From a virus (Duplodnaviria > Caudoviricetes), in IMG/VR virus record IMGVR_UViG_3300017914_000417, positions 1-62,851 of that record: a stretch of 62,851 nucleotides of DNA; one strand, given 5' to 3'. A program made the translations under genes and the position numbers. The first letter of the stretch is position 1. Each line of letters begins with the position of its first letter. Positions 45,163 to 62,214 of the stretch are shown here, in pieces. The notes below the pieces were generated by a model. The model saw only the letters and a list, made by a program, of their open reading frames with translations. It was not told where the DNA came from and did no database searches.

Positions 45163-45755
45163 GTACTATCCTTTATGCCTAATTCCTCGTCTACATCTAT
45201 GCTGTCACCATCTATCAATACGGCTTCCTCGACTTCTTCATCAGGATTTATCAGTTTTGATAGCTTTGCTCTTAGACTTTCCCGTAATTCTTCGGTTGTC
45301 TTATGAGTAACAGTCACCTCCGTCTTCTCCGAGAACAGGCCTACGTCGGAAATCTTACCCAAAAGCTCTAGCGCACGTATTCTGACCCTCGGATCAGCGT
45401 TGTCAGTCTCCAAAATTAGCTTATTAGTCACCATGTGACGTACTTGCACCGCCGATTGTGCTACAGACTGCCCAAATTCCTGCAAAATATTGTTCGTCAG
45501 GACCAACGAGGCGGGTGTCAGGGACGCTGCACGCCTATTAGTTACCTTTTTAGAGGTATTTTCGGGGTCTTCGGCGTATGCCATGCTTAGTTTTGCTGCT
45601 ATATCCTCGTCTTCTTTGGTCGGATTGACCTCAAGACCGTTCTCTACAAGCACATTTACGGTGCCACATGCAGCTTCTGCCCTAGTTCGTAGGTCTACGT
45701 AGGGGATATCTGGTGTGAAGGGCACACCAATCTCTGGTTCTATCAGTAGTGTCAT
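45159..45755 (-). CDS. Terminase small subunit (putative)
   Basis: Directly upstream of TerL; RIRALELLGK motif. Confidence 0.55.
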   Translation of the reverse strand: MTLLIEPEIGVPFTPDIPYVDLRTRAEAACGTVNVLVENGLEVNPTKEDEDIAAKLSMAYAEDPENTSKKVTNRRAASLTPASLVLTNNILQEFGQSVAQSAVQVRHMVTNKLILETDNADPRVRIRALELLGKISDVGLFSEKTEVTVTHKTTEELRESLRAKLSKLINPDEEVEEAVLIDGDSIDVDEELGIKDST

Positions 45756-45808
45756 GCCATTTTACGCAGGTTGTTAACCGATAGTTACTTTTTATACGCT
45801 AAACTGCG

Positions 45809-46162
45809 CTATTCTTCAATACCCTTATCTTCGTTCCAGTGTAAGATGCGGTGGCAGTTAGCACATAAAGGGATACATTTTTCGGTGGCTTCTTTTTTGG
45901 CGGCACCGTAACGCCCTTGTCCTGATAAAAGATATACATGCGTCATATCTGTTTTGTCTATGTGGTGGAAATCTATGATAGCTGGGTGACTTGCGCCGCA
46001 ATGTTCGCATTTTTGCTCCGCCTTAAATTCAAGCCAATCTTTCTTGTACCGCTTTCGATTTGCCGCAGCGGTTGCTTTGTGTTTTTCCTTGTTCCGTTTG
46101 TACCACTCTTTCTGGTACGCACGGTTATACGCCTTCTGCGCTTCAGGATCTTTATATCCCAC
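45809..46162 (-). CDS. HNH endonuclease
   Basis: CEHC...DFHH...LCANCHRILH; probable GTG start. Confidence 0.8.
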   Translation of the reverse strand: MGYKDPEAQKAYNRAYQKEWYKRNKEKHKATAAANRKRYKKDWLEFKAEQKCEHCGASHPAIIDFHHIDKTDMTHVYLLSGQGRYGAAKKEATEKCIPLCANCHRILHWNEDKGIEE

Positions 46163-46341
46163 GTCTTCCCCCCAGAAGTTGTGGTGTAAATACAATAACA
46201 CAATTTTTTAACGACTTGAAGTTTAGGTACCATAAAGGGGGTACTTCCCTGTGTAAGTATAACGCAGCGGAACCCAAAAAATTACGAATCATTTGTGAAA
46301 ATTAGTATTGCATACGTATACGGTAACAAGCTGACAGAAAC

Positions 46342-46363
46342 GGGGTGTCGGGGTGGGGTAGGG
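46342..46363 (+). other. G-quadruplex-type G-tract motif
   Basis: GGGG-TGTC-GGGG-T-GGGG-TA-GGG. Confidence 0.55.
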
Positions 46364-46456
46364 TTTATCAAATCATGTTAAAAGCTACCTAGTATTTCCA
46401 AGCGATTTGTGCCAGTATTAAATCATGGCGAGGGATGGTCTCTCGCTTCTAACCAT

Positions 46457-46474
46457 GTTAGGGAATTCCCTAAC
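46457..46474. repeat. Palindrome GTTAGGG-AATT-CCCTAAC
   Basis: Read directly; upstream of first early gene. Confidence 0.9.
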
Positions 46475-46499
46475 AGTCATACGAAAAGGAAAACAAGTT

Positions 46500-47021
46500 A
46501 TGACAAATTCAAATATCACTCTTTCTGCTAAGGCATCAACTCTCATTAAAACTTTCGTATCTCGAGAGGCTGGCTATCAAAAAGCCAGAGCCGCATTGCT
46601 GGACGAGCTGGCTAACACTGGCTGGACTAGCGCGCATCTGCGCTCGCCTAAAACTTCTGGACTATGTACGCCAGAGGCATGGGCGGCATTGAACAAGGCG
46701 GTTGCCATGACACTACCGAAAGCCACATGCCAGCTTGTTCTGGCGGATTCGGTTAAAGGCATGACGGATGCGCAGAAAGACAAGCGCAGAAAAGCTATGC
46801 AACAAATCGGCTCGCTGATTAAAGATTTGCGTAACGCAATGGCGAGACGAGAGCCTAAAGAGAGCCGTCCAGTGGTGGCGCCATCTGAGCGCCATCTCAA
46901 ATCGCTTCAGAACATGGTAACATGGATTGACGAGATTGATGGCGAGCCAGCTGGCAAGGCGTTTGATGTAGTCGAGATTAAATCTCAACTCAACAAGTTG
47001 ATTGCCATGATGAGAGGCTAA
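46500..47021 (+). CDS. First early gene, hypothetical helical protein (173 aa)
   Basis: AGGAAAACAAGTT-ATG; palindrome upstream; own terminator. Confidence 0.7.
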   Translation: MTNSNITLSAKASTLIKTFVSREAGYQKARAALLDELANTGWTSAHLRSPKTSGLCTPEAWAALNKAVAMTLPKATCQLVLADSVKGMTDAQKDKRRKAMQQIGSLIKDLRNAMARREPKESRPVVAPSERHLKSLQNMVTWIDEIDGEPAGKAFDVVEIKSQLNKLIAMMRG

Positions 47022-47031
47022 CACCAACGAG

Positions 47032-47061
47032 AAAGGCAGGGTTTTTACCCTGCCTTTTTTT
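47032..47061 (+). terminator. Intrinsic terminator
   Basis: AAAGGCAGGGT-TTTT-ACCCTGCCTTT followed by T-run. Confidence 0.85.
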
Positions 47062-47077
47062 GTGCCTAATTTTTGGC

Positions 47078-47189
47078 GATGCCAGTTCCGTAGCCGCGTC
47101 GAGTTCGTGCATCGCACAGCTACGAGTTTTGTTAGGGACTTCCCTAACACTTGTACTGATGTGATACCAGTTCCGTAGCCGCGTCGAGT
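47078..47189. repeat. Pair of 27-bp direct repeats (47078-47104, 47163-47189)
   Basis: GATRCCAGTTCCGTAGCCGCGTCGAGT, 1 mismatch. Confidence 0.85.
47131..47148. repeat. Palindrome GTTAGGG-ACTT-CCCTAAC
   Basis: Read directly; between the 27-bp direct repeats. Confidence 0.9.
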
Positions 47190-47190
47190 G

Positions 47191-47524
47191 AATGTTCCAA
47201 ATGTTCCTATGAATGTTCCAGAATGTTCCTTTTTATTTCGGCAAAAAGGTACATTAGCAAATCGTGGTAAATCGTGTCGTGCGGTGGTTTACAACGGTAT
47301 CCTGTTAGGGAAATCCCTAACAAATAAGACTATATATATATAATGTTCCTTTTATAAATATTACTATCCACCGTGACGACTAGCCTATAACAAGTGTATG
47401 TATGTTCCTTTATCTGTTCGCTTAGGTATGGCGTAGTGAATACCTCATAAATTAGGGAACATTAGAACATTACAGTTTTTACAGAGACTTACCTGTTCCC
47501 ACATACAGAACATTGTAGAACATT
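47191..47524. repeat. Iteron-like AATGTTCC octamer array in opposing orientations with an (AT)n tract; candidate origin or packaging region
   Basis: AATGTTCC at 47191, 47200, 47212, 47222, 47342; (G/A)GAACATT copies at 47456, 47464 and 47507-47524; TATATATATATA at ~47331. Confidence 0.6.
47304..47321. repeat. Palindrome GTTAGGG-AAAT-CCCTAAC
   Basis: Read directly; inside iteron-like region. Confidence 0.9.
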
Positions 47525-47561
47525 ACATCACTTACCACGTTTTACAACACCTAGTTACGAC

Positions 47562-47591
47562 TTGACACGAAGGGGTATTATGTGATACTAT
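47562..47591 (+). promoter_or_regulatory. Sigma70-type early promoter
   Basis: TTGACA-18 nt-TACTAT with TGn extension. Confidence 0.7.
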
Positions 47592-47596
47592 TAAGA

Positions 47597-47655
47597 ACAA
47601 TCAGAGTTTGACCAAATTTTTTCTTGTTTTCCTCCTTTGGTCATTCTCTGGTTGT
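47597..47655 (+). ncRNA. Leader hairpin with 19-nt U/C-rich loop antisense to the RBS of gene 46500
   Basis: Stems ACAATCAGAG/CTCTGGTTGT and TGACCAAA/TTTGGTCA; loop 47623-47633 is the reverse complement of 46487-46497. Confidence 0.5.
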
Positions 47656-47687
47656 ACCAACAACAACTTGTCATATGGAGAAACGAC

Positions 47688-48695
47688 ATGACATTCAATA
47701 CTACAAACATCAACGACTTTACTTCTAACGCCACAGCACCAGCCGATACAATCGGCTCGAACAAAGCTGACCTCGTTCTCAAGTTAGGGAACTCCCTAAC
47801 AAACGGAACATCACCTATCGACACCGAATCTGTTCCGTCACTAGCTTCTAGTGCAATGCTGGTAGAACTCAGCATCTCTGCATGGCGTGGTTCAAAGCTA
47901 GCCAAGCGTGAATCCGAAGAAGTAACACAGCGCGCCAATGCTGGCGACCGCACAGCCAGAGTGACCAAGAGCCTGTTACCAGATTGTGAGGAACTTAAAG
48001 CTATCCACACACATATCAACGCAATACGCGCCTACAACAATTCGGCAACTATGCCGTGGGGTAACATGGGGCAGAAGCTACTAGCGACCAAAGGCTACCC
48101 GACCTATCACAATGACATTACTGGCATGATTGCCGAAGGCTATCGTTTGGTTGACGCATTCTGTCAATCGTATGATTGGAAGATAGCAGATGCACAGGCA
48201 TCACTTGGCGATATGTTTGACAGTAACGATTACCCATCAGTGGATGACATACGCAGGAAGTTTGTATTCCGTTTGTCGTATCAACCGCTACCTGATGCTG
48301 GTGATTTCCGTATCGACATTGGCAATGAAGCTATGCGCGACATCCAAGAGAGATACAATTCTTTTTACGAGACTTGCTTCAAGCAAGCTATGGGTGATGT
48401 GTGGCAACGCGTTTACAAGGCTTTGTCTAACGCTTCCGAGCGCTTGGATTACTCTGACACAGAGGACAAGCGAGTATTCCGTGATTCGCTGGTTGGCAAC
48501 ATCATGGGTCTGGTCGATGTACTAGATGTATGTAATGTCACCAACGATACGCAGATGTCGGCACTACGCCAGCAACTGCAACAAGCCTTCGAGGGTATTA
48601 CCGCTGACGCATTGCGTGATGACGAGTACCTACGCAGGGAAACCAAGACCAATGTGGACGCTATCATCGCACAGCTTCCATCAATCGAAATGTAA
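47688..48695 (+). CDS. DUF3150-like protein
   Basis: GGAGAAACGAC-ATG; AMLVELSISAW, TMPWG, YPSVDDIRRKF..RL..PLP; precedes AAA/vWA pair. Confidence 0.6.
   Translation: MTFNTTNINDFTSNATAPADTIGSNKADLVLKLGNSLTNGTSPIDTESVPSLASSAMLVELSISAWRGSKLAKRESEEVTQRANAGDRTARVTKSLLPDCEELKAIHTHINAIRAYNNSATMPWGNMGQKLLATKGYPTYHNDITGMIAEGYRLVDAFCQSYDWKIADAQASLGDMFDSNDYPSVDDIRRKFVFRLSYQPLPDAGDFRIDIGNEAMRDIQERYNSFYETCFKQAMGDVWQRVYKALSNASERLDYSDTEDKRVFRDSLVGNIMGLVDVLDVCNVTNDTQMSALRQQLQQAFEGITADALRDDEYLRRETKTNVDAIIAQLPSIEM
47783..47800. repeat. Palindrome GTTAGGG-AACT-CCCTAAC (in CDS)
   Basis: Read directly. Confidence 0.9.
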
Positions 48696-48698
48696 TCA

Positions 48699-48716
48699 GT
48701 TAGGGTATTCCCTAAC
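48699..48716. repeat. Palindrome GTTAGGG-TATT-CCCTAAC
   Basis: Read directly; intergenic. Confidence 0.9.
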
Positions 48717-48740
48717 ATATTGTCAGAAGGAGAAACGACA

Positions 48741-49835
48741 ATGACTAATCAAGCTATCACAATGTATGCACAGTCTCTGGACGGTATCGCATCACTCATC
48801 AAAGCCAACGGCAACAAGCGCACTATCATCGTGCAAGGTGACATGGGTTGTGGCAAATCATCAATCCTCAAGATGTTGTCAGATATGTTGCCTGACCATG
48901 CGCCATGCTACTTCGATTGCACCACCAAAGACTTGGGTGACATCATGATTCCAAAGATGTCTGAGTTGGACGGACAGGACTATGTTCGGTTTGCAGTCAA
49001 CGAGGAGTTGGGCGTACATCTGGGCAAACCTGTCATCATCATGCTTGACGAGTTCGGCAAGTCCAATCCAGCGGTCAAGAACGCACTGCTTCGTTTGATA
49101 CAGGAGCGTGAGATTGGTGGCTACAAGTTGCACCCTGACAGCATCGTATTTGCTACCACCAACAAAGGCTCGGAGGGTGTCGGTGACTTGTTACCACCTC
49201 ATGCGCGTAACCGCGTCGCAGTCGTACCCACACGCAAACCAAGCAACATGGAGTGGATTGAGTGGGGCATCAACAACGGTGTTGACCACAGCTTGCTCGG
49301 TTGGGTGAAGGACAATCCGCATCTGTTCGCATCATTCGAGGATGTCAAAGACCCTGACGAGAACCCATACATCTTCCACCCGAAGGCACAACGCACATCG
49401 TTTGTCACACCACGCTCATTGGAAGCGGCATCCGATTGGCTACATTGTCGGGCTGAGTTCAGTGATGATGCGCTCACAGCTGTTCTCATGGGTACGATTG
49501 GTGAACGAGCGGCAATGGACTTGATGGCGTTTGTCAAACTGGCTGACCAGCTACCTACATTGGAGTCTATCAAGACTGACCCGAAGAACGCAAAAGTGCC
49601 TGACTCTGCCGCCGCAGTTTGCATGGTAGTCTATCGCACACTAGCAAGTCTGGACAAAGATTGGGTGTCACAGTGGATGGACTACATGGTGCGTCTGGAC
49701 AAAGAAGCACAGGGTATGTTTGCCAACGGTGTACGCTCACCCAAGTACAGCAAGCAAACAATGGTCATGACCAACAAGAAGTTCACCGAGTGGGCTATGC
49801 AGAACAACTATATGTTCGCTGGTGACAAGAAGTAA
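48741..49835 (+). CDS. MoxR-like AAA+ ATPase
   Basis: GDMGCGKS, IMLDE, ATTN, ARNR, TPRS. Confidence 0.85.
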   Translation: MTNQAITMYAQSLDGIASLIKANGNKRTIIVQGDMGCGKSSILKMLSDMLPDHAPCYFDCTTKDLGDIMIPKMSELDGQDYVRFAVNEELGVHLGKPVIIMLDEFGKSNPAVKNALLRLIQEREIGGYKLHPDSIVFATTNKGSEGVGDLLPPHARNRVAVVPTRKPSNMEWIEWGINNGVDHSLLGWVKDNPHLFASFEDVKDPDENPYIFHPKAQRTSFVTPRSLEAASDWLHCRAEFSDDALTAVLMGTIGERAAMDLMAFVKLADQLPTLESIKTDPKNAKVPDSAAAVCMVVYRTLASLDKDWVSQWMDYMVRLDKEAQGMFANGVRSPKYSKQTMVMTNKKFTEWAMQNNYMFAGDKK

Positions 49836-49838
49836 TCA

Positions 49839-49856
49839 GTTAGGGAATACCCTAAC
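49839..49856. repeat. Palindrome GTTAGGG-AATA-CCCTAAC
   Basis: Read directly; intergenic. Confidence 0.9.
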
Positions 49857-49880
49857 ATATTGTCAGAAGGAGAAACGACA

Positions 49881-51074
49881 ATGTTATCTATCGGAGTAAA
49901 TCTAACAGCAGAGCAACGACTGTCCAAAGCGGTCGTTGACATCATGGCTAACCCCAAGTATGTCGCTCTGTCTGGTGTCCTGATGATTGGCGAACGGTCA
50001 GTCACCAAAGCCAAAGCACCAACAGCTTGCACAGATGGCAAGAACGAATGGTACAATCCCGATTTCGTTGACACACTAAACGATGCCGAGTTGCGCTTCC
50101 TCGTATTGCACGAGTGCTATCACAAGCTGTACCGACACCTAATGACATGGAAACATCTTCACGAGCAGAATCACAGGATAGCCAACATCGCTTGTGATTA
50201 TGTCATCAACATCAAGATACAAGATGACAATCCTGATGGCTGGGCAAAGATGCCCGAAGGTGGCTACCTCGATGAGAAGTATCGTAACTGGGATACCGCA
50301 CAGGTATTCAAGGACATCTACGACAATGATGACGATGGCGGTGACGGTGGACGCGGTGGCGATGGCGGTCAAGGTTTCGATGACCACGATTGGGAAGGCG
50401 CACAAGAGATGACCGCTGATGAGCAACGCGAGTTGGCTCGTGAGTTGGACGAAGCTATCCGACAAGGTGCGCTCGTTGCTGGCAAGACTGGCTCTGGTGG
50501 TGACAGAGACTTGGCGGAACTGCTACAGCCACAGGTCAACTGGCGCGAGGTGTTGCGTGATTTCGTGACAACAAATTGTGCTGGCAAGGACTTCTCGACT
50601 TGGAAGCGACCTAGCCGCAGGTATGCCGCATCTGGTTACTATATGCCTAGTGCTATCAGTGAGCAGATTGGTGGGCTGGTTGTTGCCAACGATATGTCTG
50701 GCTCTATCGGTCAGCGTGAGATATCCGTCTGTCTTACCGAAACCAAAGAGGTATGCGATACAGTGCATCCCGATTGGGTACGCATCCTGTATTGGGATAC
50801 GCAGGTTTGTGGTGACGAGTTGTACCAGAACAACGAACTGGACACGATGATACAATCCACAAAGCCTGTCGGTGGTGGCGGCACTATGCTGTCTTGTGTA
50901 CCCAAGCACATGACCAAAGAGGGTATCGAACCTCAAGCTGTAATTGTCGTGACCGATGGCTACATTGGGGATTGGGGTACATTCAACTGTCCTGTCCTGT
51001 TTGTCATCATCGACAATCCGTCATGCAAAGCACCATTCGGTGTTACCGTCAATGTCAAGTCAAGAGATATGTAA
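49881..51074 (+). CDS. DUF2201-type metallopeptidase + vWA domain protein
   Basis: PTACTDG, LHECYH, MIDAS DMSGS, GGGGT, VTDG. Confidence 0.85.
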   Translation: MLSIGVNLTAEQRLSKAVVDIMANPKYVALSGVLMIGERSVTKAKAPTACTDGKNEWYNPDFVDTLNDAELRFLVLHECYHKLYRHLMTWKHLHEQNHRIANIACDYVINIKIQDDNPDGWAKMPEGGYLDEKYRNWDTAQVFKDIYDNDDDGGDGGRGGDGGQGFDDHDWEGAQEMTADEQRELARELDEAIRQGALVAGKTGSGGDRDLAELLQPQVNWREVLRDFVTTNCAGKDFSTWKRPSRRYAASGYYMPSAISEQIGGLVVANDMSGSIGQREISVCLTETKEVCDTVHPDWVRILYWDTQVCGDELYQNNELDTMIQSTKPVGGGGTMLSCVPKHMTKEGIEPQAVIVVTDGYIGDWGTFNCPVLFVIIDNPSCKAPFGVTVNVKSRDM

Positions 51075-51077
51075 ACA

Positions 51078-51095
51078 GTTAGGGTATTCCCTAAC
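51078..51095. repeat. Palindrome GTTAGGG-TATT-CCCTAAC
   Basis: Read directly; abuts RBS. Confidence 0.9.
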
Positions 51096-51107
51096 AAGGA
51101 GAAAGCT

Positions 51108-51305
51108 ATGAAACAGAGTAAAGAAGATATCATGTACGATGGGTCATCTATGGTAATCAACAACCTAGAACAAGTCCTGTCCAAAGAACTAGGTGCAGAC
51201 TTCAAGTGGGAATGGCGGTCTGTAGTCGGTGGAGACGAACTAAATCCTATATGGAGTCTCACACTGTTTGTTGAACCAAAGGAATATACAGAGGAGTCAG
51301 AGTAA
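51108..51305 (+). CDS. Hypothetical protein
   Basis: AAGGAGAAAGCT-ATG. Confidence 0.6.
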   Translation: MKQSKEDIMYDGSSMVINNLEQVLSKELGADFKWEWRSVVGGDELNPIWSLTLFVEPKEYTEESE

Positions 51306-51781
51306 TGGGTTATCGTTCCGAAGTATGGCTCACTGTCGCAGTACCAACACAGACAATCTTGTCAGAACTGGTATCAGTGTATGCGCTGGATGAGCGTGTC
51401 AAAAAACACAAAGTGCTAGATGATTTCGTGGTCAAGTATCACACGGACAGTTGCTTATTCTACACCCTGACCATCCATGCCACAGACACAAAGTGGTATG
51501 AGATGTTCGAGGATGTGCAAGCGGCACACTATCTGGCTGAACTATGTCAGAGTTTCTACCAAGAACGTGGTGACGAGTTTGCGTACGCTTACAAGTTTAT
51601 TCGTATCGGAGAAGAAACAGGCGACATCGAGCATGACTCACATGAGTCTAACAATGCTCTAGGTCAGCTGATGGCTGATGAGATGAACGACCACGCATGG
51701 TCAGTCCAAATGATTGAAATCACGAACACAGGTACAGATGTTAGGGTTTCCCTAACACCCAACGGTATAACAGTCGAGTAA
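51305..51781 (+). CDS. Hypothetical protein (MGYRS-type phage early protein)
   Basis: MGYRSEV...KWY...FIRIGEE. Confidence 0.7.
   Translation: MGYRSEVWLTVAVPTQTILSELVSVYALDERVKKHKVLDDFVVKYHTDSCLFYTLTIHATDTKWYEMFEDVQAAHYLAELCQSFYQERGDEFAYAYKFIRIGEETGDIEHDSHESNNALGQLMADEMNDHAWSVQMIEITNTGTDVRVSLTPNGITVE
51740..51756. repeat. Palindrome GTTAGGG-TTT-CCCTAAC (in CDS)
   Basis: Read directly; 3-nt spacer. Confidence 0.9.
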
Positions 51782-51792
51782 GGAGAAACACA

Positions 51793-52818
51793 ATGGCTTT
51801 ATATTACACAAACTACAGAACTTTCGCAGATGTTGTAGAGGACTATAACAAAATCAAACCTATCGTATCCAAGAACCACACAAGGGCAGATGATGTCCGT
51901 CCTATCGGTGACAGGGCGCGGAAACAAGAGCGCATTATCAAGCTGGACAATAACTGCTATGCTTTGTCGGATTGGGATACGCCTGACCAGATATTCTATT
52001 GGGGTCATACCGAACCACCTGTACCCAAAGAGACACGCGACTTTGCACCTATACTATGGCGCAAGCGTGGTGGCTCGGAGTATGTGCATATTCGCAATGG
52101 TGTCGGGCAAGCCGCACACAATGGTAGGTACTCATTCCTCAGCAGACATCTACCACCGCGTATGGATTTTGTCATCGACAACGGCAAGCAGTTTGTTCGG
52201 TATCAAGGTAGGCGGTATTTCCTACCCAAAGGAAAGTACTGGTGGCCTACTCGCGTGGATTACATGAACGAACATTACAACAAGGGCAACCAGAACATAC
52301 GCAGAGAGCAGTACAAGACTGGTCGCAATCCTGAACTTGTTTTCAAGCGTGATGGTGATAACTGGATTATCCAGAATGAACACTCACTACCCAAGCCGCC
52401 ACGCCAGTTGGTTCGCAAGGGTGTCAAGGCAAGATACGCGAAGGCTCTCAATTCTCTACGCGAGTATGTTTTCGCAATGGCGCCTGTTATCGTAGTGCAA
52501 GACGATGGGAGTTATTACCGCAGACATAATTGGGAGCAAGAGATGTCCATGCGTTCTGAGTTTGCGCAGGCAGTCAAGGAGCATTATCCTGAGTATGATA
52601 CGGATGACCGCTATTTCGCAATGAATAGCATTCCGCCAAAACTTGCACTAGACATCATTACCAGCTACAATGATTCACTAAGATTATACCTTGCTTATCA
52701 GTTTGGCATAGATTCTGATATCTGTACTATGTCCGACCAAGAAGATGTTAAGCGTGTCAAAGCACAATACAACCGCTGGATAAACAAGTTGTGTGGTTTC
52801 ACAAAGGTAGTTAGTTAG
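51793..52818 (+). CDS. Hypothetical protein (341 aa)
   Basis: AGGAGAAACACA-ATG; long ORF. Confidence 0.75.
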   Translation: MALYYTNYRTFADVVEDYNKIKPIVSKNHTRADDVRPIGDRARKQERIIKLDNNCYALSDWDTPDQIFYWGHTEPPVPKETRDFAPILWRKRGGSEYVHIRNGVGQAAHNGRYSFLSRHLPPRMDFVIDNGKQFVRYQGRRYFLPKGKYWWPTRVDYMNEHYNKGNQNIRREQYKTGRNPELVFKRDGDNWIIQNEHSLPKPPRQLVRKGVKARYAKALNSLREYVFAMAPVIVVQDDGSYYRRHNWEQEMSMRSEFAQAVKEHYPEYDTDDRYFAMNSIPPKLALDIITSYNDSLRLYLAYQFGIDSDICTMSDQEDVKRVKAQYNRWINKLCGFTKVVS

Positions 52819-52831
52819 GGAGTTCCCTAAC
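52814..52831. repeat. Palindrome GTTAGGG-AGTT-CCCTAAC
   Basis: Read directly; supplies TAG stop of upstream gene. Confidence 0.9.
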
Positions 52832-52857
52832 AAGTTGACATAAGAAGGAGAAACGAA

Positions 52858-53691
52858 ATGTCATTTACACCAAAGTTAGTAAAAGAAGTAAAAGCTAAGT
52901 ACAACAATGTCGAAGCAGGAGAGGAGTTGCTACTTCTCATCTGCAAGCTGAAAGGGGTGATGCCGACTTTGCACACCCATGTCACATCCTCTGGCACAGC
53001 GTACTTGTACATGAACAACCAGCCATATGTATTGGGGCGCATCAAGTACGGACAGTTACAGGACAGCACTATGGACTATATGTATGGTGTGGTCAGTCCG
53101 AATATCTGTAACGAAAAGTACAGTGACCACCGTGAGTTGTTCAGCACTAAGATGACGAAGAACGTGGACACGGCACTAAAACATGTAAAGAAGTATGTGC
53201 GTCCTATGTCTCTTACCGACATCGCCAGGCAGAGTACAAACGATTATGAGCATACGGTGCGTAGGCTAGTGTCTCAGAAGGTCAACACAGCAGAACAAAG
53301 CAAGCGCAGTGTTTTGCAAGACGAGTTGATGACCGAGTTGCGTACGATGTATCAGACAGGGTACGAGTTCAATGCGACCCTTGCCGAGAAGATACATGAT
53401 TGGATTGCGGCTGATGAAGAAGCATCCAAGTATGAGCGTAAGTTCAAACAGCTTGAGTGTCGTTTCGTGCAAGTGAAGAACACACCGATGGGGCAACACC
53501 TATCGGTGGCGCAGTGTACTGATATGCTGTCGTACAGCACAAAGGTAACACCCACAGACGTGTTCACAGCAACTAACGCACCCGAAGAATTGGTGGGTAA
53601 GTTGTCAGTCTTAACCATACTCGAAGATGAAGCGTATGTTGAGGATGTAGGCATGAAGATTACAGACGAGTTGTTCTATGTCGAAGGATAA
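52858..53691 (+). CDS. Hypothetical protein (277 aa)
   Basis: GAAGGAGAAACGAA-ATG; long ORF. Confidence 0.75.
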   Translation: MSFTPKLVKEVKAKYNNVEAGEELLLLICKLKGVMPTLHTHVTSSGTAYLYMNNQPYVLGRIKYGQLQDSTMDYMYGVVSPNICNEKYSDHRELFSTKMTKNVDTALKHVKKYVRPMSLTDIARQSTNDYEHTVRRLVSQKVNTAEQSKRSVLQDELMTELRTMYQTGYEFNATLAEKIHDWIAADEEASKYERKFKQLECRFVQVKNTPMGQHLSVAQCTDMLSYSTKVTPTDVFTATNAPEELVGKLSVLTILEDEAYVEDVGMKITDELFYVEG

Positions 53692-53980
53692 ACCTGTTTA
53701 CATGGTTAAGTTGGAGACAGGTACTCTAGCCGACCACCGAGGCAAGATAAAAGTCTGGTGCATTGGGCTAGAGTGTCCTGACCCCAACGAGAGGGAAATA
53801 TATGATAATTTTGAGGAGTTACCCAAATGGATACAACGCAAGATTACAATATTGGATATGGTGCAATCTCGTGAGAGAGGGAAGTTATCAGTACTACCAC
53901 CTAGAGTTGACGGTGTAGGCACTGCATTTGGAACTTCCTATCAGATAATAAAGGATGAAGATGATGAAGACGATGGATAG
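53678..53980 (+). CDS. Hypothetical protein
   Basis: ELPKWIQRKITIL...VDGVG resembles the C-terminus of the upstream ORF (APEELVGKLSVL...VEDVG). Confidence 0.65.
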   Translation: MSKDKPVYMVKLETGTLADHRGKIKVWCIGLECPDPNEREIYDNFEELPKWIQRKITILDMVQSRERGKLSVLPPRVDGVGTAFGTSYQIIKDEDDEDDG

Positions 53981-54155
53981 AGTTAAGAATAGAGCGAAGG
54001 TACTCACCGTTATTATGGGTTCTTTCTTGGTATATTTTTTCGTGGCTATGTCAGCCTTGTTTTGGATTGACTGGTTGTGGATTTTCGGTGTTGAGGATAG
54101 TCAACAGTATACATGGTGGGGCATGATTTACGCCCTTGCAAATGGAGGATGGTAA
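53973..54155 (+). CDS. Small membrane protein
   Basis: One long hydrophobic segment, Trp-rich. Confidence 0.55.
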   Translation: MDRVKNRAKVLTVIMGSFLVYFFVAMSALFWIDWLWIFGVEDSQQYTWWGMIYALANGGW

Positions 54156-54156
54156 C

Positions 54157-54564
54157 ATGACGAATGAACTGAACGAAGTGAAGAAGGAACTGAAGCAAGT
54201 GAAAGATGCTTTGCGTAACTTCATGGTAACTTATCACAGTCAGATGGCAGATATTGTAGCACAACAAAAAGATGCCACTACAGTTTTAGAGGAACATTGG
54301 GCGCAGATAAAAAGACGACCAGTTGATTTAGAGCAGATGCGGCATGTTGTGTACGATGATGTAGAGAAACAAGTTGAGCGTCATCTAGCAGAACACATGA
54401 CTGTTTTTGACAGAGCGATAGACAATTACTTTTTTGATGCGCGGCTTGTGCCTAGCAAACGGATAAGCGATGTCTTGACCGAGACAGACCCAGATACCCT
54501 TGATGTTACCTTGTCGGGTAGCATAAAGGATGAGGTCAAAAAAGAAATGTCAAAAGGTGCTTGA
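54157..54564 (+). CDS. Hypothetical coiled-coil protein
   Basis: GGAGG upstream; heptad pattern. Confidence 0.6.
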   Translation: MTNELNEVKKELKQVKDALRNFMVTYHSQMADIVAQQKDATTVLEEHWAQIKRRPVDLEQMRHVVYDDVEKQVERHLAEHMTVFDRAIDNYFFDARLVPSKRISDVLTETDPDTLDVTLSGSIKDEVKKEMSKGA

Positions 54565-54611
54565 CAATAAGCTAAACTATCGTCAATTATTAAATCGTGA
54601 GGTAAAGTATT

Positions 54612-54905
54612 ATGACGCCAGAAGCTAAAGTAAAAAAGAAAGTTGTAGCAATGTTGAAGGAGTACGGTTGCTATTACTTTTATCCAGTGACAGGTGGTTA
54701 CGGTAAAAGCGGTGTGCCAGATATCGTAGCTTGTCACAACGGATACTTCATAGGTATCGAGTGCAAGGCGGGCAACAACAAGCCCACACCATTACAGGAA
54801 AAGAACTTGTCAGATATTAAGAAGTCCAATGGCGTGGCGATAGTTATTAACGAGGACAATCTCGAACTTGTTAGGGAAACCCTAACTTTACAAGAGATAA
54901 ACTAA
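54612..54905 (+). CDS. VRR-NUC nuclease (Holliday junction resolvase-like)
   Basis: TPEAKVK...GVPDI...IECK...PTPLQ. Confidence 0.85.
   Translation: MTPEAKVKKKVVAMLKEYGCYYFYPVTGGYGKSGVPDIVACHNGYFIGIECKAGNNKPTPLQEKNLSDIKKSNGVAIVINEDNLELVRETLTLQEIN
54870..54886. repeat. Palindrome GTTAGGG-AAA-CCCTAAC (in CDS)
   Basis: Read directly; 3-nt spacer. Confidence 0.9.
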
Positions 54906-54907
54906 TA

Positions 54908-54982
54908 GAGACTAGGCTTTTGCTTCTCCTTCCCTAGTCTCAGTGGGTGACAGTTGCTTTTGTTGTTGGTGCTGTCACCCAC
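54908..54982 (+). ncRNA. Twin-hairpin RNA with loops antisense to early-gene initiation regions
   Basis: Perfect 9-bp and 11-bp stems; loops CTTTTGCTTCTCCTTC and TTGCTTTTGTTGTTGGTG. Confidence 0.55.
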
Positions 54983-54999
54983 CCTTTGGGAGAAATGAT

Positions 55000-55329
55000 A
55001 TGAACTGTCCAGAATGTAAATCGAAATCTAAGGTAGACGAGTCCAGAACCAGAGACAATAACACATGGCGTAGACGTACTTGTTTGTCATGTAATCACAA
55101 ATATCAGACAGTTGAAAAACTGTTTGTGAAACCAGTTACGAAACCAGTTACCGCGCCCACGAAAGTTAGGGAAAACCCTAACAAAAGAAAACGCAGAAAG
55201 AGTTTCGTGCCACTACAGAAGAAGCATGAGCCAGCAGTGATGCGCGAACCTGATGTAGACTCGATGACCGATGAAGAATTGGAAGCTTGGATTTTTTCAG
55301 AGGGGGCTAGCTTCGATGATGAGGATTAA
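55000..55329 (+). CDS. NrdR-like Zn-ribbon protein (no ATP cone)
   Basis: MNCPEC...KVDESR...RRRTCLSC...YQTVE. Confidence 0.75.
   Translation: MNCPECKSKSKVDESRTRDNNTWRRRTCLSCNHKYQTVEKLFVKPVTKPVTAPTKVRENPNKRKRRKSFVPLQKKHEPAVMREPDVDSMTDEELEAWIFSEGASFDDED
55165..55182. repeat. Palindrome GTTAGGG-AAAA-CCCTAAC (in CDS)
   Basis: Read directly. Confidence 0.9.
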
Positions 55330-55504
55330 AGTAGGGGAGAAGGGATACTTTCAAAAAGCGATTGATGCAGGTTTGTGTCCAAAATGCAAGACTAAAGTAG
55401 ATTACAGCGTTGACCCTACGGTCTGTAGTGTGTGCAAACTAGAAATGACTGGTGCAACAAAGGACGAAAAGGAATCTAGGCATGACAGAAGAACAGAGAT
55501 TTAA
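55316..55504 (+). CDS. Small Zn-ribbon protein
   Basis: CPKC...CSVC. Confidence 0.55.
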   Translation: MMRIKVGEKGYFQKAIDAGLCPKCKTKVDYSVDPTVCSVCKLEMTGATKDEKESRHDRRTEI

Positions 55505-55643
55505 GGAATGGTTAAAAACTAGTCCTTTTATGTGGACGATTGTAGATAGTATCAGTGATGAGAACGCATTGGTGGTATCTTTTGATATTGTCCGAACCAA
55601 AGATGAACGGCAGTTAGAGTTGCCGTTTGAACCCGAAGCCTAA
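55482..55643 (+). CDS. Hypothetical protein
   Basis: FKEWLKTSP; C-terminal QLELPF, a beta-clamp-binding-like motif. Confidence 0.55.
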   Translation: MTEEQRFKEWLKTSPFMWTIVDSISDENALVVSFDIVRTKDERQLELPFEPEA

Positions 55644-55655
55644 TGGAGAAATGAT

Positions 55656-56135
55656 ATGGCAAGGAAGAAGACTACGAAGCACGAAAAAGTTTGGAAGATG
55701 TTACTGGCGAACCCGAAAGCCCCTGTGAAAGAAATAGCAGAGAAGGCAGGGTGTTCAACCAAGTACGTGTACATGCTAAAGAGCAAGATAGGTACACCAA
55801 TGGAAGTGTTAGTACCAGACACTAAGAAGAAAGACCTAGATGCTTGGAACGGACTCGGCGGAACAGTACGTAAGTCACGCTCAAACGTGTTGGCACAAGC
55901 AGACAAGCTGGTCAATGGCGCTCGAGCAGACGAGTACGGTGATGCGAAGCAGAACTTTGATGACATTGCAAAGATGTGGTCAGTGTTGTTAGGAACAGAA
56001 ATAACAGCACAGCAGGTAGCATTGTGCATGATTGCGGTGAAGTCAGCTAGGCTGATGAAGTCCGACAGCCCCGACAGTTGGGTAGACATCTGCGGTTACG
56101 GTGCGCTGGGTGGAGAGATGCAATCAGATGCTTGA
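55656..56135 (+). CDS. HTH + DUF6378-like protein
   Basis: VKEIAEKAGCSTKYVY HTH; R..EYGDA..NF..IA.MWS...DSWVDICGYGAL. Confidence 0.75.
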   Translation: MARKKTTKHEKVWKMLLANPKAPVKEIAEKAGCSTKYVYMLKSKIGTPMEVLVPDTKKKDLDAWNGLGGTVRKSRSNVLAQADKLVNGARADEYGDAKQNFDDIAKMWSVLLGTEITAQQVALCMIAVKSARLMKSDSPDSWVDICGYGALGGEMQSDA

Positions 56136-56307
56136 GCGCAAATGTGATAAATGTGAGGAGTACGCCATTGTTAATAGCGATGGCGTATTTTCCTGCCCTT
56201 CGTGTTGGATGAAACGAGTAAAAGAGGAAGAAAAACGTGGACGTAATAACCCTAGATTTCGAGACGTTCTACAGCAAAGAGTTCAGTCTACGAAAAGTTA
56301 CGACTGA
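56128..56307 (+). CDS. Small Zn-finger protein (uncertain)
   Basis: CDKC...CPSCW; overlaps polymerase start by ~70 nt. Confidence 0.4.
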   Translation: MLERKCDKCEEYAIVNSDGVFSCPSCWMKRVKEEEKRGRNNPRFRDVLQQRVQSTKSYD

Positions 56308-58063
56308 GGAGTACATACGAGACTCTCGGTTTGAAGTTATCGGTGTAGGTGTGAAGTTTAACAACGAACCTACCGAATGGGCTAGTGGTACACAGGAACA
56401 GTTGCAAGCGTACCTCAACATGTTTGATTGGGGTAACGCTATGCTGGTCTGCCACAATACGATGTTCGATGGGGCGATACTGAACTGGCGGTTTGGTATC
56501 AAGCCGAAGGCTTATGCAGACACGATGTGCATGGCACGAGCAATTCATGGCGTGGAAACAAGTGCTAGTTTGAGAGCAATCAGCGATAAGTACGGAGTTG
56601 GTACGAAAGGTTACGAAGTAAACAACGCGCAGGGTAAGAACCGCGTGGACTTTACTGATGCCGAACTTGCCGCGTATGGCGATTATTGTGTCACTGACGT
56701 AGACCTGACATTCAAGCTGTTCAAGATTATGGCTAACGACTTTCCGAAGATGGAGATGAAGCTGATAGACCTGACGTTGCGGATGTTTATTGACCCTATG
56801 CTGGAGTTAGACTTGGGGCTACTTGAACAGCACCTCACCGAAACAAAAGACCGTAAGGATGAACTGCTGGAGAAAGCAGGGGTGAGTAAAGAAGAACTGA
56901 TGAGCAATCCGAAGTTTGCGGAGTTGTTGCGGCAGTTAGGTGTAGAGCCGCCTATGAAGGTCAGTCCGACTACAGGTAAAGAGACATACGCTTTCGCCAA
57001 GACAGACGAAGCGTTCAAGGCTCTGGCAGAACACGACAACGACAAAGTGCAATCGTTGGTGTCAGCTAGACTTGGTACGAAGAGTACACTAGAGGAAACA
57101 CGTACACAGAGGTTTATAGATATAGCTAAACGTGGAACACTTCCCGTACCGATACGCTACTATGCCGCACATACTGGCAGATGGGGCGGTGATGACAAGA
57201 TTAACTTGCAGAACTTACCGAGCCGTGGCGTAAACGGCAAAAAGCTAAAACGTGGTATCATCGCACCAGAGGGCTACAGCTTGATTGATGCTGACTCGTC
57301 ACAGATTGAAGCGCGAGTGCTGGCGTGGCTAGCCGAACAGGACGACCTGACCCAAGCCTTTGCCAACGGTGAAGATGTTTATGTGAAGATGGCTTCTCGC
57401 ATCTACGGCGTCCCCGAAGAAGATGTATCCAAAGACCAACGGTTTGTGGGTAAGACCACTATCTTGGGCGCAGGGTACGGCATGGGAGCAGTTAAATTTC
57501 AAGCACAATTAAAAAACTTTGGGTTTGATATGGAGTTAGAAGAAGCCCGAAGGGTAATCAACATCTACCGTGATGCGAACTGGAAGATTAACCAGCTATG
57601 GCGAGACGCTAACAATACGTTGACCTATATGTTGAGAGGCGACAGGTTAAACTTTGGTAAGGCTGGAGTGATTACTGCTTATACGAGCCCTACAGGTTTA
57701 CTATTACCCTCAAACTTGTTGTTACGTTATGATGGGCTAGGGGCAGAACAGGGTGAGAAGGGCATAGAGATGTCCTACAAAACACGACTAGGCCGAACAC
57801 GCATCTACGGTGGAAAAGTTATAGAGAATGTGTGCCAAGCGATAGCACGTTGCATTATTGGTGAGCAGATGCTAAAAATAGCTAGCAAATACAAAGTTGT
57901 GATGACAGTGCATGACTCGATTGTATGTTGCGTACGAGACGATGAGGTCAGCGAAGCCCAACAATATGTTGAGGGATGTATGCGCTGGACACCTGATTGG
58001 GCAGATGGCTTACCGATTGATTGTGAGTCTGGCACAGGCAAATCGTATGGGGATTGTGGATGA
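56237..58063 (+). CDS. polA: DNA polymerase family A with 3'-5' exonuclease
   Basis: ExoI DFET; HTGRW; NLQNLP; motif A DSSQIEAR; motif B RFVGKTTILGAGYG; motif C VHDS. Confidence 0.92.
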   Translation: MDVITLDFETFYSKEFSLRKVTTEEYIRDSRFEVIGVGVKFNNEPTEWASGTQEQLQAYLNMFDWGNAMLVCHNTMFDGAILNWRFGIKPKAYADTMCMARAIHGVETSASLRAISDKYGVGTKGYEVNNAQGKNRVDFTDAELAAYGDYCVTDVDLTFKLFKIMANDFPKMEMKLIDLTLRMFIDPMLELDLGLLEQHLTETKDRKDELLEKAGVSKEELMSNPKFAELLRQLGVEPPMKVSPTTGKETYAFAKTDEAFKALAEHDNDKVQSLVSARLGTKSTLEETRTQRFIDIAKRGTLPVPIRYYAAHTGRWGGDDKINLQNLPSRGVNGKKLKRGIIAPEGYSLIDADSSQIEARVLAWLAEQDDLTQAFANGEDVYVKMASRIYGVPEEDVSKDQRFVGKTTILGAGYGMGAVKFQAQLKNFGFDMELEEARRVINIYRDANWKINQLWRDANNTLTYMLRGDRLNFGKAGVITAYTSPTGLLLPSNLLLRYDGLGAEQGEKGIEMSYKTRLGRTRIYGGKVIENVCQAIARCIIGEQMLKIASKYKVVMTVHDSIVCCVRDDEVSEAQQYVEGCMRWTPDWADGLPIDCESGTGKSYGDCG

Positions 58064-58722
58064 GTGAAAAGTGGTCGTTCAGTAGGCTCAAGTCTTTCGA
58101 GCAATGTCCGAAACAGTTTTATCATGTAAAGGTGAAGCGAGAGTACGAAGAGCCTGAGACTGAGGCTATGCTGTACGGCTCTGAGTTTCACCTTGCTTGT
58201 GAGGAATACGTCCGAGACAGAAAACCAATCCCAAAGAAGTTTGAGTATATCAAACCTACACTTGATTCGCTGATCGCCAAAGAAGGTGAGAAGTTATGTG
58301 AATACAAGATGGGGATTACGGTAGACCTAGAACCATGCACGTTCTTTGCCGACAATGTTTGGTGGCGCGGTATTGCAGATTTAGTTATACTGAATGGCGA
58401 TGAGGCTACCGTGATTGATTACAAAACGGGTAAGTCCACACGTTACGCAGATAAAGGCCAGCTGGAGTTGATGGCTCTGGCTACTTTCAAACACTTTCCA
58501 ACGGTGAAGAAAGTAAAGGCTGGGCTACTGTTTGTGGTATGTAACGAACTTATACGCGATACATACAACGCAGACCAACAGCCAGAACTGTGGAAGAAGT
58601 GGCTCGATAAGTATGGTGCGATGGAAGCGGCTTTCGAGAACGATGTGTGGAATCCCAACCCAAGTGGGCTTTGTAGGCGGCATTGTGTAGTGCTGGAGTG
58701 TCCACATAACGGGAGAGGCTAA
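58060..58722 (+). CDS. PD-(D/E)xK exonuclease (Cas4/AddB-like Cys cluster)
   Basis: SFSRL...QCP, GIADL, DYKTGK, QLELMA, C..HC...CPH. Confidence 0.85.
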   Translation: MSEKWSFSRLKSFEQCPKQFYHVKVKREYEEPETEAMLYGSEFHLACEEYVRDRKPIPKKFEYIKPTLDSLIAKEGEKLCEYKMGITVDLEPCTFFADNVWWRGIADLVILNGDEATVIDYKTGKSTRYADKGQLELMALATFKHFPTVKKVKAGLLFVVCNELIRDTYNADQQPELWKKWLDKYGAMEAAFENDVWNPNPSGLCRRHCVVLECPHNGRG

Positions 58723-58979
58723 TGCCATATACTAAATCTAAAAGGCCGTACAAGAAAGAGTACGAGCAACAGAAAGCCAGAGGCGAACACAAGAACAGAA
58801 TGGAACGCCAGAGAGCAAGACGCAAGCTTGACAAGAAAGGCGTTAACCGCAAAGGTAAAGATGTAGCCCACAAGAAAGCGTTAAGTAAGGGTGGGTCTAA
58901 CAAGGACGGTTACACATTACAAAGCCCAAAGAAGAACCGCAGTGCTGGTGGGCGAATGAGTAAGCCAAAGAAAAGTTAG
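58722..58979 (+). CDS. Small HNH-like basic protein
   Basis: KDVAHKKALSKGGSN...NRS. Confidence 0.65.
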   Translation: MPYTKSKRPYKKEYEQQKARGEHKNRMERQRARRKLDKKGVNRKGKDVAHKKALSKGGSNKDGYTLQSPKKNRSAGGRMSKPKKS

Positions 58980-58992
58980 GGAGTTCCCTAAC
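58975..58992. repeat. Palindrome GTTAGGG-AGTT-CCCTAAC
   Basis: Read directly; supplies TAG stop and abuts helicase RBS. Confidence 0.9.
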
Positions 58993-62135: not shown

Positions 62136-62214
62136 TGTAGGGGCTAGGCTGGTTTTTGTTCGTTCCCCAGCCGAAAAGGGTGAGTTGCAACACCCCTGCC
62201 CCTGCATCTTTTTT
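62136..62214 (+). ncRNA. Three-way-junction RNA element followed by U-tract
   Basis: P1 TGTAGGGGC/GCCCCTGCA, P2 GGCTGG/CCAGCC with U/C loop, P3 GGGTG/CACCC. Confidence 0.45.

Follow-up and report, generated by a model that had tools for sequence, protein, structure and literature searches.

An early-operon leader hairpin of an uncultured marine phage family displays a loop that covaries with the ribosome-binding site of an upstream gene

The window analyzed here is a complete IMG/VR virus record of the Caudoviricetes (IMGVR_UViG_3300017914_000417; 62,851 bp), and the element in question is a hairpin at the head of its early operon. Structural genes occupy the minus strand (2347-46201), and the early and replication genes lie on the plus strand, from gene 46500 to the end of the window and continuing through positions 1-2257. 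Between gene 46500 and the early operon lie an intrinsic terminator, an origin-like region and a promoter, and the operon itself opens with the leader hairpin, a short spacer and the gene for a DUF3150 protein (Table 1). An earlier examination of this DNA, hereafter the sequence-only reading, had proposed that the hairpin loop is antisense to the ribosome-binding site (RBS) of gene 46500. Comparison with relatives supports that proposal, as in nine of ten lineage representatives the leader pairs with the Shine-Dalgarno (SD) region of its own upstream gene, and the two sequences covary.

Table 1. Features of gene 46500, the origin-like region and the start of the early operon, with positions in the window (MFE, minimum free energy; UTR, untranslated region).
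Feature	Position	Strand	Description
Target hairpin in gene-46500 5' UTR	46476-46504	+	GUCAUA(C)/(G)UUAUGAC stem, 14-nt loop
Target sequence AGGAAAACAAG	46487-46497	+	-13..-3 of ATG 46500
Target gene (gene 46500)	46500-47021	+	173 aa; kept across the phage family, ahead of the origin-like region
Intrinsic terminator after gene 46500	47035-47061	+	GGCAGGG-loop-CCCTGCC, then T7; read from sequence
Origin-like region	47190-47540	.	Direct and inverted (G/A)AATGTTCC iterons, AT-rich run
Early-operon promoter, sigma-70 type	47562-47591	+	10/12 matches, TG before -10
Leader hairpin	47597-47655	+	MFE: 10+8 = 18-bp stem, 2x2 internal loop, 19-nt loop
Unpaired pyrimidine loop TTTTTTCTTGTTTTCCTCC	47617-47635	+	19 nt; anti-RBS core CTTGTTTTCCT at 47623-47633
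Unstructured A/C-rich spacer	47656-47669	+	Between leader hairpin and DUF3150 start-site hairpin
Start-site hairpin of first early gene	47670-47692	+	GTCAT/ATGAC stem, SD cassette GGAGAAACGAC in loop
DUF3150 (PF11348) gene	47688-48695	+	First of early operon; PF11348 precomputed on many homologues
MoxR-type AAA ATPase gene	48741-49835	+	After DUF3150 gene
DUF2201 peptidase/vWA gene	49881-51074	+	After MoxR ATPase gene

In the promoter ahead of the hairpin, the -35 box TTGACA lies at 47562-47567, and the -10 box can be read either as TACTAT at 47586-47591, with a spacer of 18 nt, or as a TG-extended GATACT at 47584-47589, with a spacer of 16 nt. Seven nucleotides past GATACT, at about +1, the hairpin begins. 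Its lower stem pairs 47597-47606 with 47646-47655 and its upper stem pairs 47609-47616 with 47636-47643, leaving all 11 of the 11 core loop bases unpaired in the MFE structure. By itself the hairpin reaches -23.3 kcal/mol, and the stretch 47597-47700 folds at -29.1 kcal/mol (z = -3.9), a stability equaled by 0/200 shuffles. The sequence-only reading had described the promoter, the 18-bp interrupted stem, the 19-nt loop and its exact complement correctly; it had also pointed to a generic CCTCC, which is indeed present inside the loop (47631-47635), and which is not kept in the relatives' loops, so that we do not retain it as a functional part.

The same type of promoter precedes the hairpin in the relatives L143, L146, L161, L152 and L162, and the motif TTGACA-17-TGnGATAMT is invariant in an alignment of seven sequences (A5). 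Because the -10 box and the start of the stem are separated by a conserved 6-7 nt in the window and in the same five relatives, a transcript starting at the hairpin is plausible, and the transcription start site would then lie at the base of the stem. Moreover, in a clade of 10 sequences, 8/25 predicted stem pairs have changed on both sides, with several G-U intermediates, which indicates an RNA structure on the plus strand.

The loop core CTTGTTTTCCT is the exact 11-nt reverse complement of AGGAAAACAAG, in the RBS of gene 46500, and the window has no other exact copy; the duplex of loop and target was calculated at -14.6 kcal/mol. The 5' UTR of gene 46500 also folds into a hairpin (z = -3.7; 0/200 shuffles equally stable), whose loop carries the SD sequence together with most of the complementary stretch, and whose 3' arm contains the start codon. 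Similar hairpins with the SD in the loop occur at the homologous gene of relatives (GTCAT/ATGAC, GTCAA/TTGAC, CACT/AGTG). As the target SD and the leader core both lie in hairpin loops, the geometry of the contact is that of loop against loop (a kissing loop). In addition, the terminator after gene 46500 and the promoter of the early operon place target and leader on separate transcripts. This terminator was absent from the pattern-scan listing, and alignment A5 shows a conserved terminator at the same place.

To judge the match within the window, loops of matched composition were shuffled: 253/5000 (5.1%) reached at least 11 nt against any of 63 start regions (96/2000 in a repeat), and 79/5000 (1.6%) reached at least 11 nt against the start region of gene 46500. 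The window contains 770 inverted 11-mer pairs. Once the relatives are counted, the match between loop and RBS is, as judged from the sequences compared, far beyond chance.

In 57 loci, the DUF3150 gene is preceded on its own strand by a homologue of gene 46500, at a distance of 1.2-2.8 kb (about 1.2-1.7 kb in the uncultured marine phages of at most 56% protein identity), and many IMG/VR loci share the succession of a -10 box, a long hairpin 6-7 nt further on, a CA-rich spacer equivalent to that of the window and a ..TGTCA-N-GGAGAACGACATG start site. Wherever a lineage has a long leader hairpin, an unpaired portion of it complements the 5' UTR of the lineage's own upstream gene, and the sequences involved are lineage-specific. 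The sequence-only reading had named relatives that keep the hairpin without complementarity as an observation that would speak against its proposal; the opposite was found in every long-loop lineage, and a short-loop sister group is without complementarity. A helix of at least 7 bp within -25..+3 is present in 9/10 lineage representatives. The pairing of 11 bp at AGGAAAACAAG in the window corresponds in L143 to 14 bp that are exact (CATGAAAGGAAAAA), or 18 bp with 2 G-U pairs, and in L144 to 10 bp on the SD plus a second helix of 11 bp at -53..-43. Two helices are likewise found in L146 and L163 (14 bp at -48..-35 and 8 bp at -24..-17) and in L161, L214 and L218 (10 bp, and 7-8 bp on the SD), and L193 has a 15-bp helix upstream of the SD region. 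In L147 and L215, the pairing comprises 7 bp and fills a 7-nt interior loop, and in L152, L153 and L157 the complementary stretch coincides exactly with an 8-nt interior loop. Close relatives differ on both sides together: L152 pairs ATGAGGAT with the loop ATCCTCAT, while L153 and L157 pair AAGAGGAT with the loop ATCCTCTT, a one-base swap between L152 and L153; similarly, L162 pairs GGGAAACA with TGTTTCCC, and L149, on the scaffold of L162 with the whole loop swapped, pairs CAGGAATTA with TAATTCCTG.

Matched and mismatched pairs could not be told apart by RNAduplex on long windows because of noise, and exact-helix statistics were therefore used; a search of the whole interval for the longest complement was dominated by palindromes. 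The longest Watson-Crick helix between a leader and its own start region measured 11, 14, 10, 8, 8, 5, 7, 8, 8 and 8 nt in the 10 representatives (mean 8.7), whereas 88 mismatched pairs of leader and start region averaged 5.48 and did not exceed 9. When labels were permuted, 0/20,000 permutations reached the matched sum, a figure that overstates the independence of the lineages, as these share ancestry. In alignment A5, in which the two sites are some 2100 columns apart, 53/56 intermolecular cells are Watson-Crick pairs, and 7/8 intermolecular positions show at least two pair types, that is, compensatory change. Sliding one partner by 1-3 columns lowered the count to 13-26/56, and pairs formed across lineages reached 2-7/8. 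These counts and controls were scripted, with 2/7 rows shifted by one column by hand.

Based on these results, we consider it probable that translation of gene 46500 is repressed in trans by the 5' leader of the early mRNA, which would serve as an antisense RNA. The hairpin would form the 5' end of the early-operon mRNA, which encodes the DUF3150 protein, the MoxR ATPase, the vWA protein and replication genes, and its stem would both provide a stable end and hold the 19-nt loop single-stranded. This loop would then pair in trans with the SD region of gene 46500 on the separate, terminated transcript encoded 1.1 kb upstream. The kissing pairing, by covering -13..-3 of the start codon, would block binding of the 30S subunit and thereby repress translation of the gene; cleavage of the duplex may follow, and the leader may be processed to a small RNA.

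Several observations weigh against this interpretation, besides the shared ancestry of the lineages. Within the window alone, the 11-mer match is marginal (p about 0.02-0.05), and both the direction and the sign of the regulation are only inferred. A promoter for gene 46500 is not evident in the window by pattern scan; in relatives, plausible promoters were seen by eye about 50-65 nt upstream of the ATG of the homologous gene. L193 is without an SD-proximal helix, its longest there being only 5 nt. In the lineages with two helices, both RNAs carry the pairing segments in the same order (a-b and a'-b'), so that a single continuous duplex cannot form and two separate loop contacts would be needed. 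Moreover, L150, L151, L154, L174, L194, L199, L221, L226, L230 and L232 form a sister group with a short 5' hairpin, a loop of about 5 nt and no complementarity, from which it follows that the 5' hairpin has some function independent of an antisense loop, and that the antisense loop is an elaboration of some clades and not universal. Finally, in some 20 loci, other small genes lie between the promoter and the DUF3150 gene, and no leader can be assigned.

Complementarity and covariation are symmetrical and do not tell which partner is regulated, and both partners are elements of mRNA 5' UTRs. The two RNAs might hence pair with another outcome, in which the 5' UTR of gene 46500 regulates the early-operon leader, through co-degradation by RNase III or an altered leader structure, or in which pairing stabilizes or activates the target. 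Far-upstream helices (-53..-35; L144, L146, L163, L161, L214, L218 and L193), which are unnecessary for a ribosome block, would fit such an outcome. We regard it as unlikely all the same, because the SD itself is covered in 9/10 lineages, the usual mark of translational repression, because the target SD already lies in an open loop and unmasking-type activation is unneeded, and because the leader loop lies at least 35 nt upstream of the operon's start site and makes no contact with it. A reading at the level of DNA would take the two sequences as inverted binding sites of one protein, for instance the product of gene 46500 or a protein that binds the origin, which controls both promoters flanking the origin-like region, the sites co-evolving with the protein. 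Both sites do flank this iteron-rich region, some upstream target segments are partly palindromic (e.g., CAACGG-CGGAA-CCGTTG in L146), and pairs of sites that track a fast-evolving protein would look compensatory too. Nevertheless, one copy always lies in the unpaired loop of a hairpin whose stems covary through G-U pairs, a strand-specific RNA structure, and the other always overlaps an SD in an RNA hairpin loop; both lie downstream of the promoters, in transcribed 5' UTRs, and their orientation is always inverted. G-U pairs also extend the helix ends (the two within the 18 bp of L143, and U-G in L146 against C-G in L163), and very close relatives differ in these sites (L152/L153 and L149/L162, where the sites alone were compared). 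Altogether, we find control through a shared DNA-binding protein quite improbable.

It could also be argued that the hairpin merely protects the early mRNA from 5'-end-dependent decay, the complementarity of its loop being functionless. Such an explanation accounts for the hairpin at about +1 being kept even in relatives with 5-nt non-complementary loops; moreover, 5% of shuffled loops reach an 11-mer within the window, and U/C-rich loops readily pair with purine-rich start regions. It leaves unexplained, however, the lineage-specific compensatory change at 7/8 intermolecular positions, the result of 0/20,000 permutations and the second helices of 10-15 bp outside the SD, and as the whole explanation we hold it to be very improbable. 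Stabilization of the mRNA may well be a second function of the stem, compatible with antisense repression of gene 46500.

Other roles for the leader were considered and rejected. No terminator-like site was found at the hairpin, whose stem is followed by ACCAACAACAAC with no direct U tract, and it was thus discarded as an intrinsic terminator or attenuator. As a cis-acting anti-SD of the DUF3150 start, the leader offers longest helices of 5, 5, 7, 5, 5, 5, 5, 4, 5 and 5 nt in the 10 lineages (median 5), which is background level. A small open reading frame (ORF) on the minus strand of the hairpin has 17 codons and a weak SD.

The product of gene 46500 was modeled as an all-helical protein (predicted local distance difference test score, pLDDT, 86). 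It had no significant match in PHROGs, Pfam, PDB sequences or Foldseek PDB, and in VIA wide helical-hairpin matches only (Z <= 6.7). The region that follows the gene (47062-47560) is origin-like, with GATRCCAGTTCCGTAGCCGCGTCGAG twice, AATGTTCC iterons that are first direct and then inverted, and an (AT)n run, and relatives keep this layout between target gene and leader promoter, with GATACCAGTT..GCCGAGCC repeats and AATGTTCG iterons in alignment A5. In L143, the nearest IMG/VR relative, a second complementarity of 11 nt (GAAAGGAAAAA; L143 1908-1923) links the leader loop to the RBS of a small ORF immediately past the gene-46500 homologue, and a single leader loop may have two targets there.

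At the start of the operon, the ATG of the DUF3150 gene (47688) sits in the 3' arm of the start-site hairpin, and the clade alignment predicts the same helix (ATGTC/GACAT). Early genes share the start cassette GGAGAAACGAC(A)ATG (47677-47692, 48729, 49869, 52847 and 58994), which forms with an upstream TGTCA a small hairpin whose loop contains the SD and whose stem takes in the ATG; relatives below 56% protein identity keep the arrangement ..TGTCA-N-GGAGAACGACATG almost unchanged. An 18-bp palindrome, GTTAGGGANNTCCCTAAC, occurs in 11 copies (<=2 mismatches) at 301-318 and within 46457-58992, in the early arm only, and several copies stand directly ahead of RBS cassettes. Relatives have their own lineage-specific palindromes at equivalent intergenic sites, e.g., GTTAGTG..CACTAAC, GTTATAGATTCTATAAC and GGTAGTCCACGGACTACC. 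One copy (47783-47800) lies within the DUF3150 coding sequence and encodes LGNSLT, a peptide found in the relatives of 85% and 73% identity and not in that of 59%.

The sequence-only reading had further seen the hairpin as paralogous to an element near position 2270, and had extended the repression of gene 46500 to a relay in which each later transcript silences an earlier one. The GACC-T-rich-TTTGGTCAT frame on which the paralogy was based is present in the 2270 element (2276-2296). The shared 9-mer, TTTGGTCAT/ATGACCAAA, occurs 6 times in the window (2288, 4705, 32514, 36398, 47636 and 50910), against 0.53 expected, so that its recurrence at 2270 says little on paralogy, which is not established. 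Nor is the wider relay, as the best start-region complements of the 54.9-kb, 2.27-kb and 62.1-kb loops are reached by 22%, 6%, 14% and 84% of shuffled loops. Further hairpins with large U/C-rich loops are found at 54908-54982 and 62147-62172. Over 9 nt (GAAGGAGAA), the first loop is complementary to the start regions of genes 48741, 49881 and 52858 (the case equaled by 22% of shuffled loops); the second loop reaches 9 nt (6%), and the 62.1-kb loop 7 nt (84%).

Beside the 2270 hairpin, the DUF3150 start site, GGAGAAACGACATGAC, is repeated exactly and in inverted orientation over 16 nt (2292-2307), and 0/100 shuffles gave a second copy. This stretch lies in a 3' UTR, past a conserved small gene (2104-2257) and ahead of a bidirectional terminator (2314-2344). 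At the same place, two full-length relatives (L244 and L245) have GTCGTTCTCC, to which their own cassette, GGAGAACGAC, is the reverse complement, with AA/TT in L244/L245 where the window has AAA/TTT; the forward cassettes of G001 are degenerate. For the 2270 element, a gene on the minus strand was rejected, since the ORF is conserved in neither G001 nor G003, and 2292-2307 is therefore a plus-strand noncoding element, possibly a 3' UTR anti-RBS.

By its listed sequencing runs, the phage is of marine origin, and its large terminase (TerL) shares 45-48% identity with those of pelagiphage HTVC027P-type and lake phages. No near-identical phage record was matched by 46300-48700 in a megablast search of INPHARED, and tblastn with the DUF3150 protein returned three cyanophage records only, at 27% identity. 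Relatives of this protein at 85%, 73% and 59% identity are known as proteins (P0002-P0004); a scan of viral contigs with P0004 as query found none, and a metagenome scan found relatives at 49% identity or less only. One DNA run, of 4 examined, holds a relative at about 87%, the contigs of which end before both the RBS and the hairpin loop. IMG/VR contains a large DUF3150 family of uncultured marine phages, at no more than 56% protein identity. Scanning it for the stem pattern gave at least 108 matches. Among 600 pattern-matched IMG/VR stretches, 574 encoded a DUF3150 relative, and 80 loci were kept. Against 142 loci, blastn with 45701-49900 matched L002-L031, which came from protein scans, and none (0) of the pattern matches.

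Antisense control of phage genes has so far been known from a handful of model temperate phages. The regulator would here be, apparently, the 5' leader of an ordinary early mRNA that acts on a different transcript by loop-loop contacts, and the compensatory conservation spans many lineages of an abundant group of uncultured marine phages. It provides a regulatory link, readable from sequence, to a conserved gene of unknown function beside a putative origin, and the natural compensatory pairs make the mechanism directly testable with reporters. The same comparative test suggests itself for the other U/C-rich hairpins with big loops and for the anti-RBS stretches in these genomes. More speculatively, and we would put this forward with considerable doubt, the pair of leader loop and RBS might be a programmable specificity module of this large phage family. 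It would be reset between close relatives in the manner of the P1/P7 immunity specificities, and would gate the origin-adjacent gene 46500 and decide which co-infecting or superinfecting relatives express it, so that lytic marine phages would fall into types set apart by RNA-based exclusion or incompatibility; combined with the conserved anti-RBS stretch at the 3' UTR of the operon, it might constitute an RNA-only timing circuit for early genes.

Literature searches found no description of the element or of this phage group's leader. Known systems of related design offer a comparison. Recognition between the loops of two hairpins is established for CopA/CopT of plasmid R1, RNAI/RNAII of ColE1 and OxyS-fhlA. 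The present element resembles these plasmid copy-control RNAs and OxyS-fhlA in its loop-loop recognition, in a start region that lies beside a replication origin, and in the two loop contacts of some lineages; the plasmid copy-control RNAs, however, are cis-encoded antisense RNAs, and gene 46500 is without evidence as a replication initiator. Stem-loops of the ompA type are mRNA stabilizers that place a stable hairpin at the first transcribed nucleotides and need no specific loop. In the window and five relatives, where the -10 box ends 6-7 nt before the stem, the stem would likewise begin at about the first transcribed bases, but the loops are long, lineage-specific and complementary to the RBS of another gene.

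Small phage antisense RNAs that lower the expression of a regulator include P22 sar, acting on ant, and lambda OOP, acting on cII, according to the passages that treat them in PMC12197685 and PMC5415839. Both are cis-encoded, lying on the strand opposite to the target with full complementarity to it, whereas the window element is trans-encoded, 1.1 kb away and on the same strand, with a loop contact of 7-18 bp. In the relevant parts of PMC4825925, the P4 CI RNA and the IsrK RNA of Gifsy-1 are described as regulatory RNAs that originate in the 5' untranslated portion of an operon transcript and pair with complementary sequences elsewhere, IsrK being small RNA and messenger both. This origin in a leader is common to CI RNA, IsrK and the window element. 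The CI RNA, however, pairs with seqA/seqC on the same operon transcript and causes premature termination, whereas the SD targeted here is on a different transcript; IsrK activates translation, whereas the window element is proposed to repress it; and no terminator follows the window hairpin.

A close parallel is offered by c4, which is processed from a transcript that also carries its target and controls the antirepressor of a temperate phage. As set out in the section of PMC12197685 devoted to it, the c4 RNA of P1/P7 (immI) is a structured phage RNA with complementary loops that pair around the RBS of another phage gene and block its translation, and the sequences of regulator and target differ together between related phages. 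The leader element is alike in both respects, as its loops pair at an RBS and its specificity covaries between relatives. Unlike c4, the regulator is here the 5' leader of an mRNA with its own promoter, its target resides on a separate, terminated transcript and has no known function, and nothing shows the window phage to be temperate. A cmscan search of 46200-47800 against the 4227 Rfam families, c4, P4 CI and IsrK included, gave no match to the hairpin (E <= 1); four weak matches were all within 46963-47170, none of them overlapping it. Overall, the element would be c4-like in function, yet stands outside the c4, P4 CI and IsrK families.

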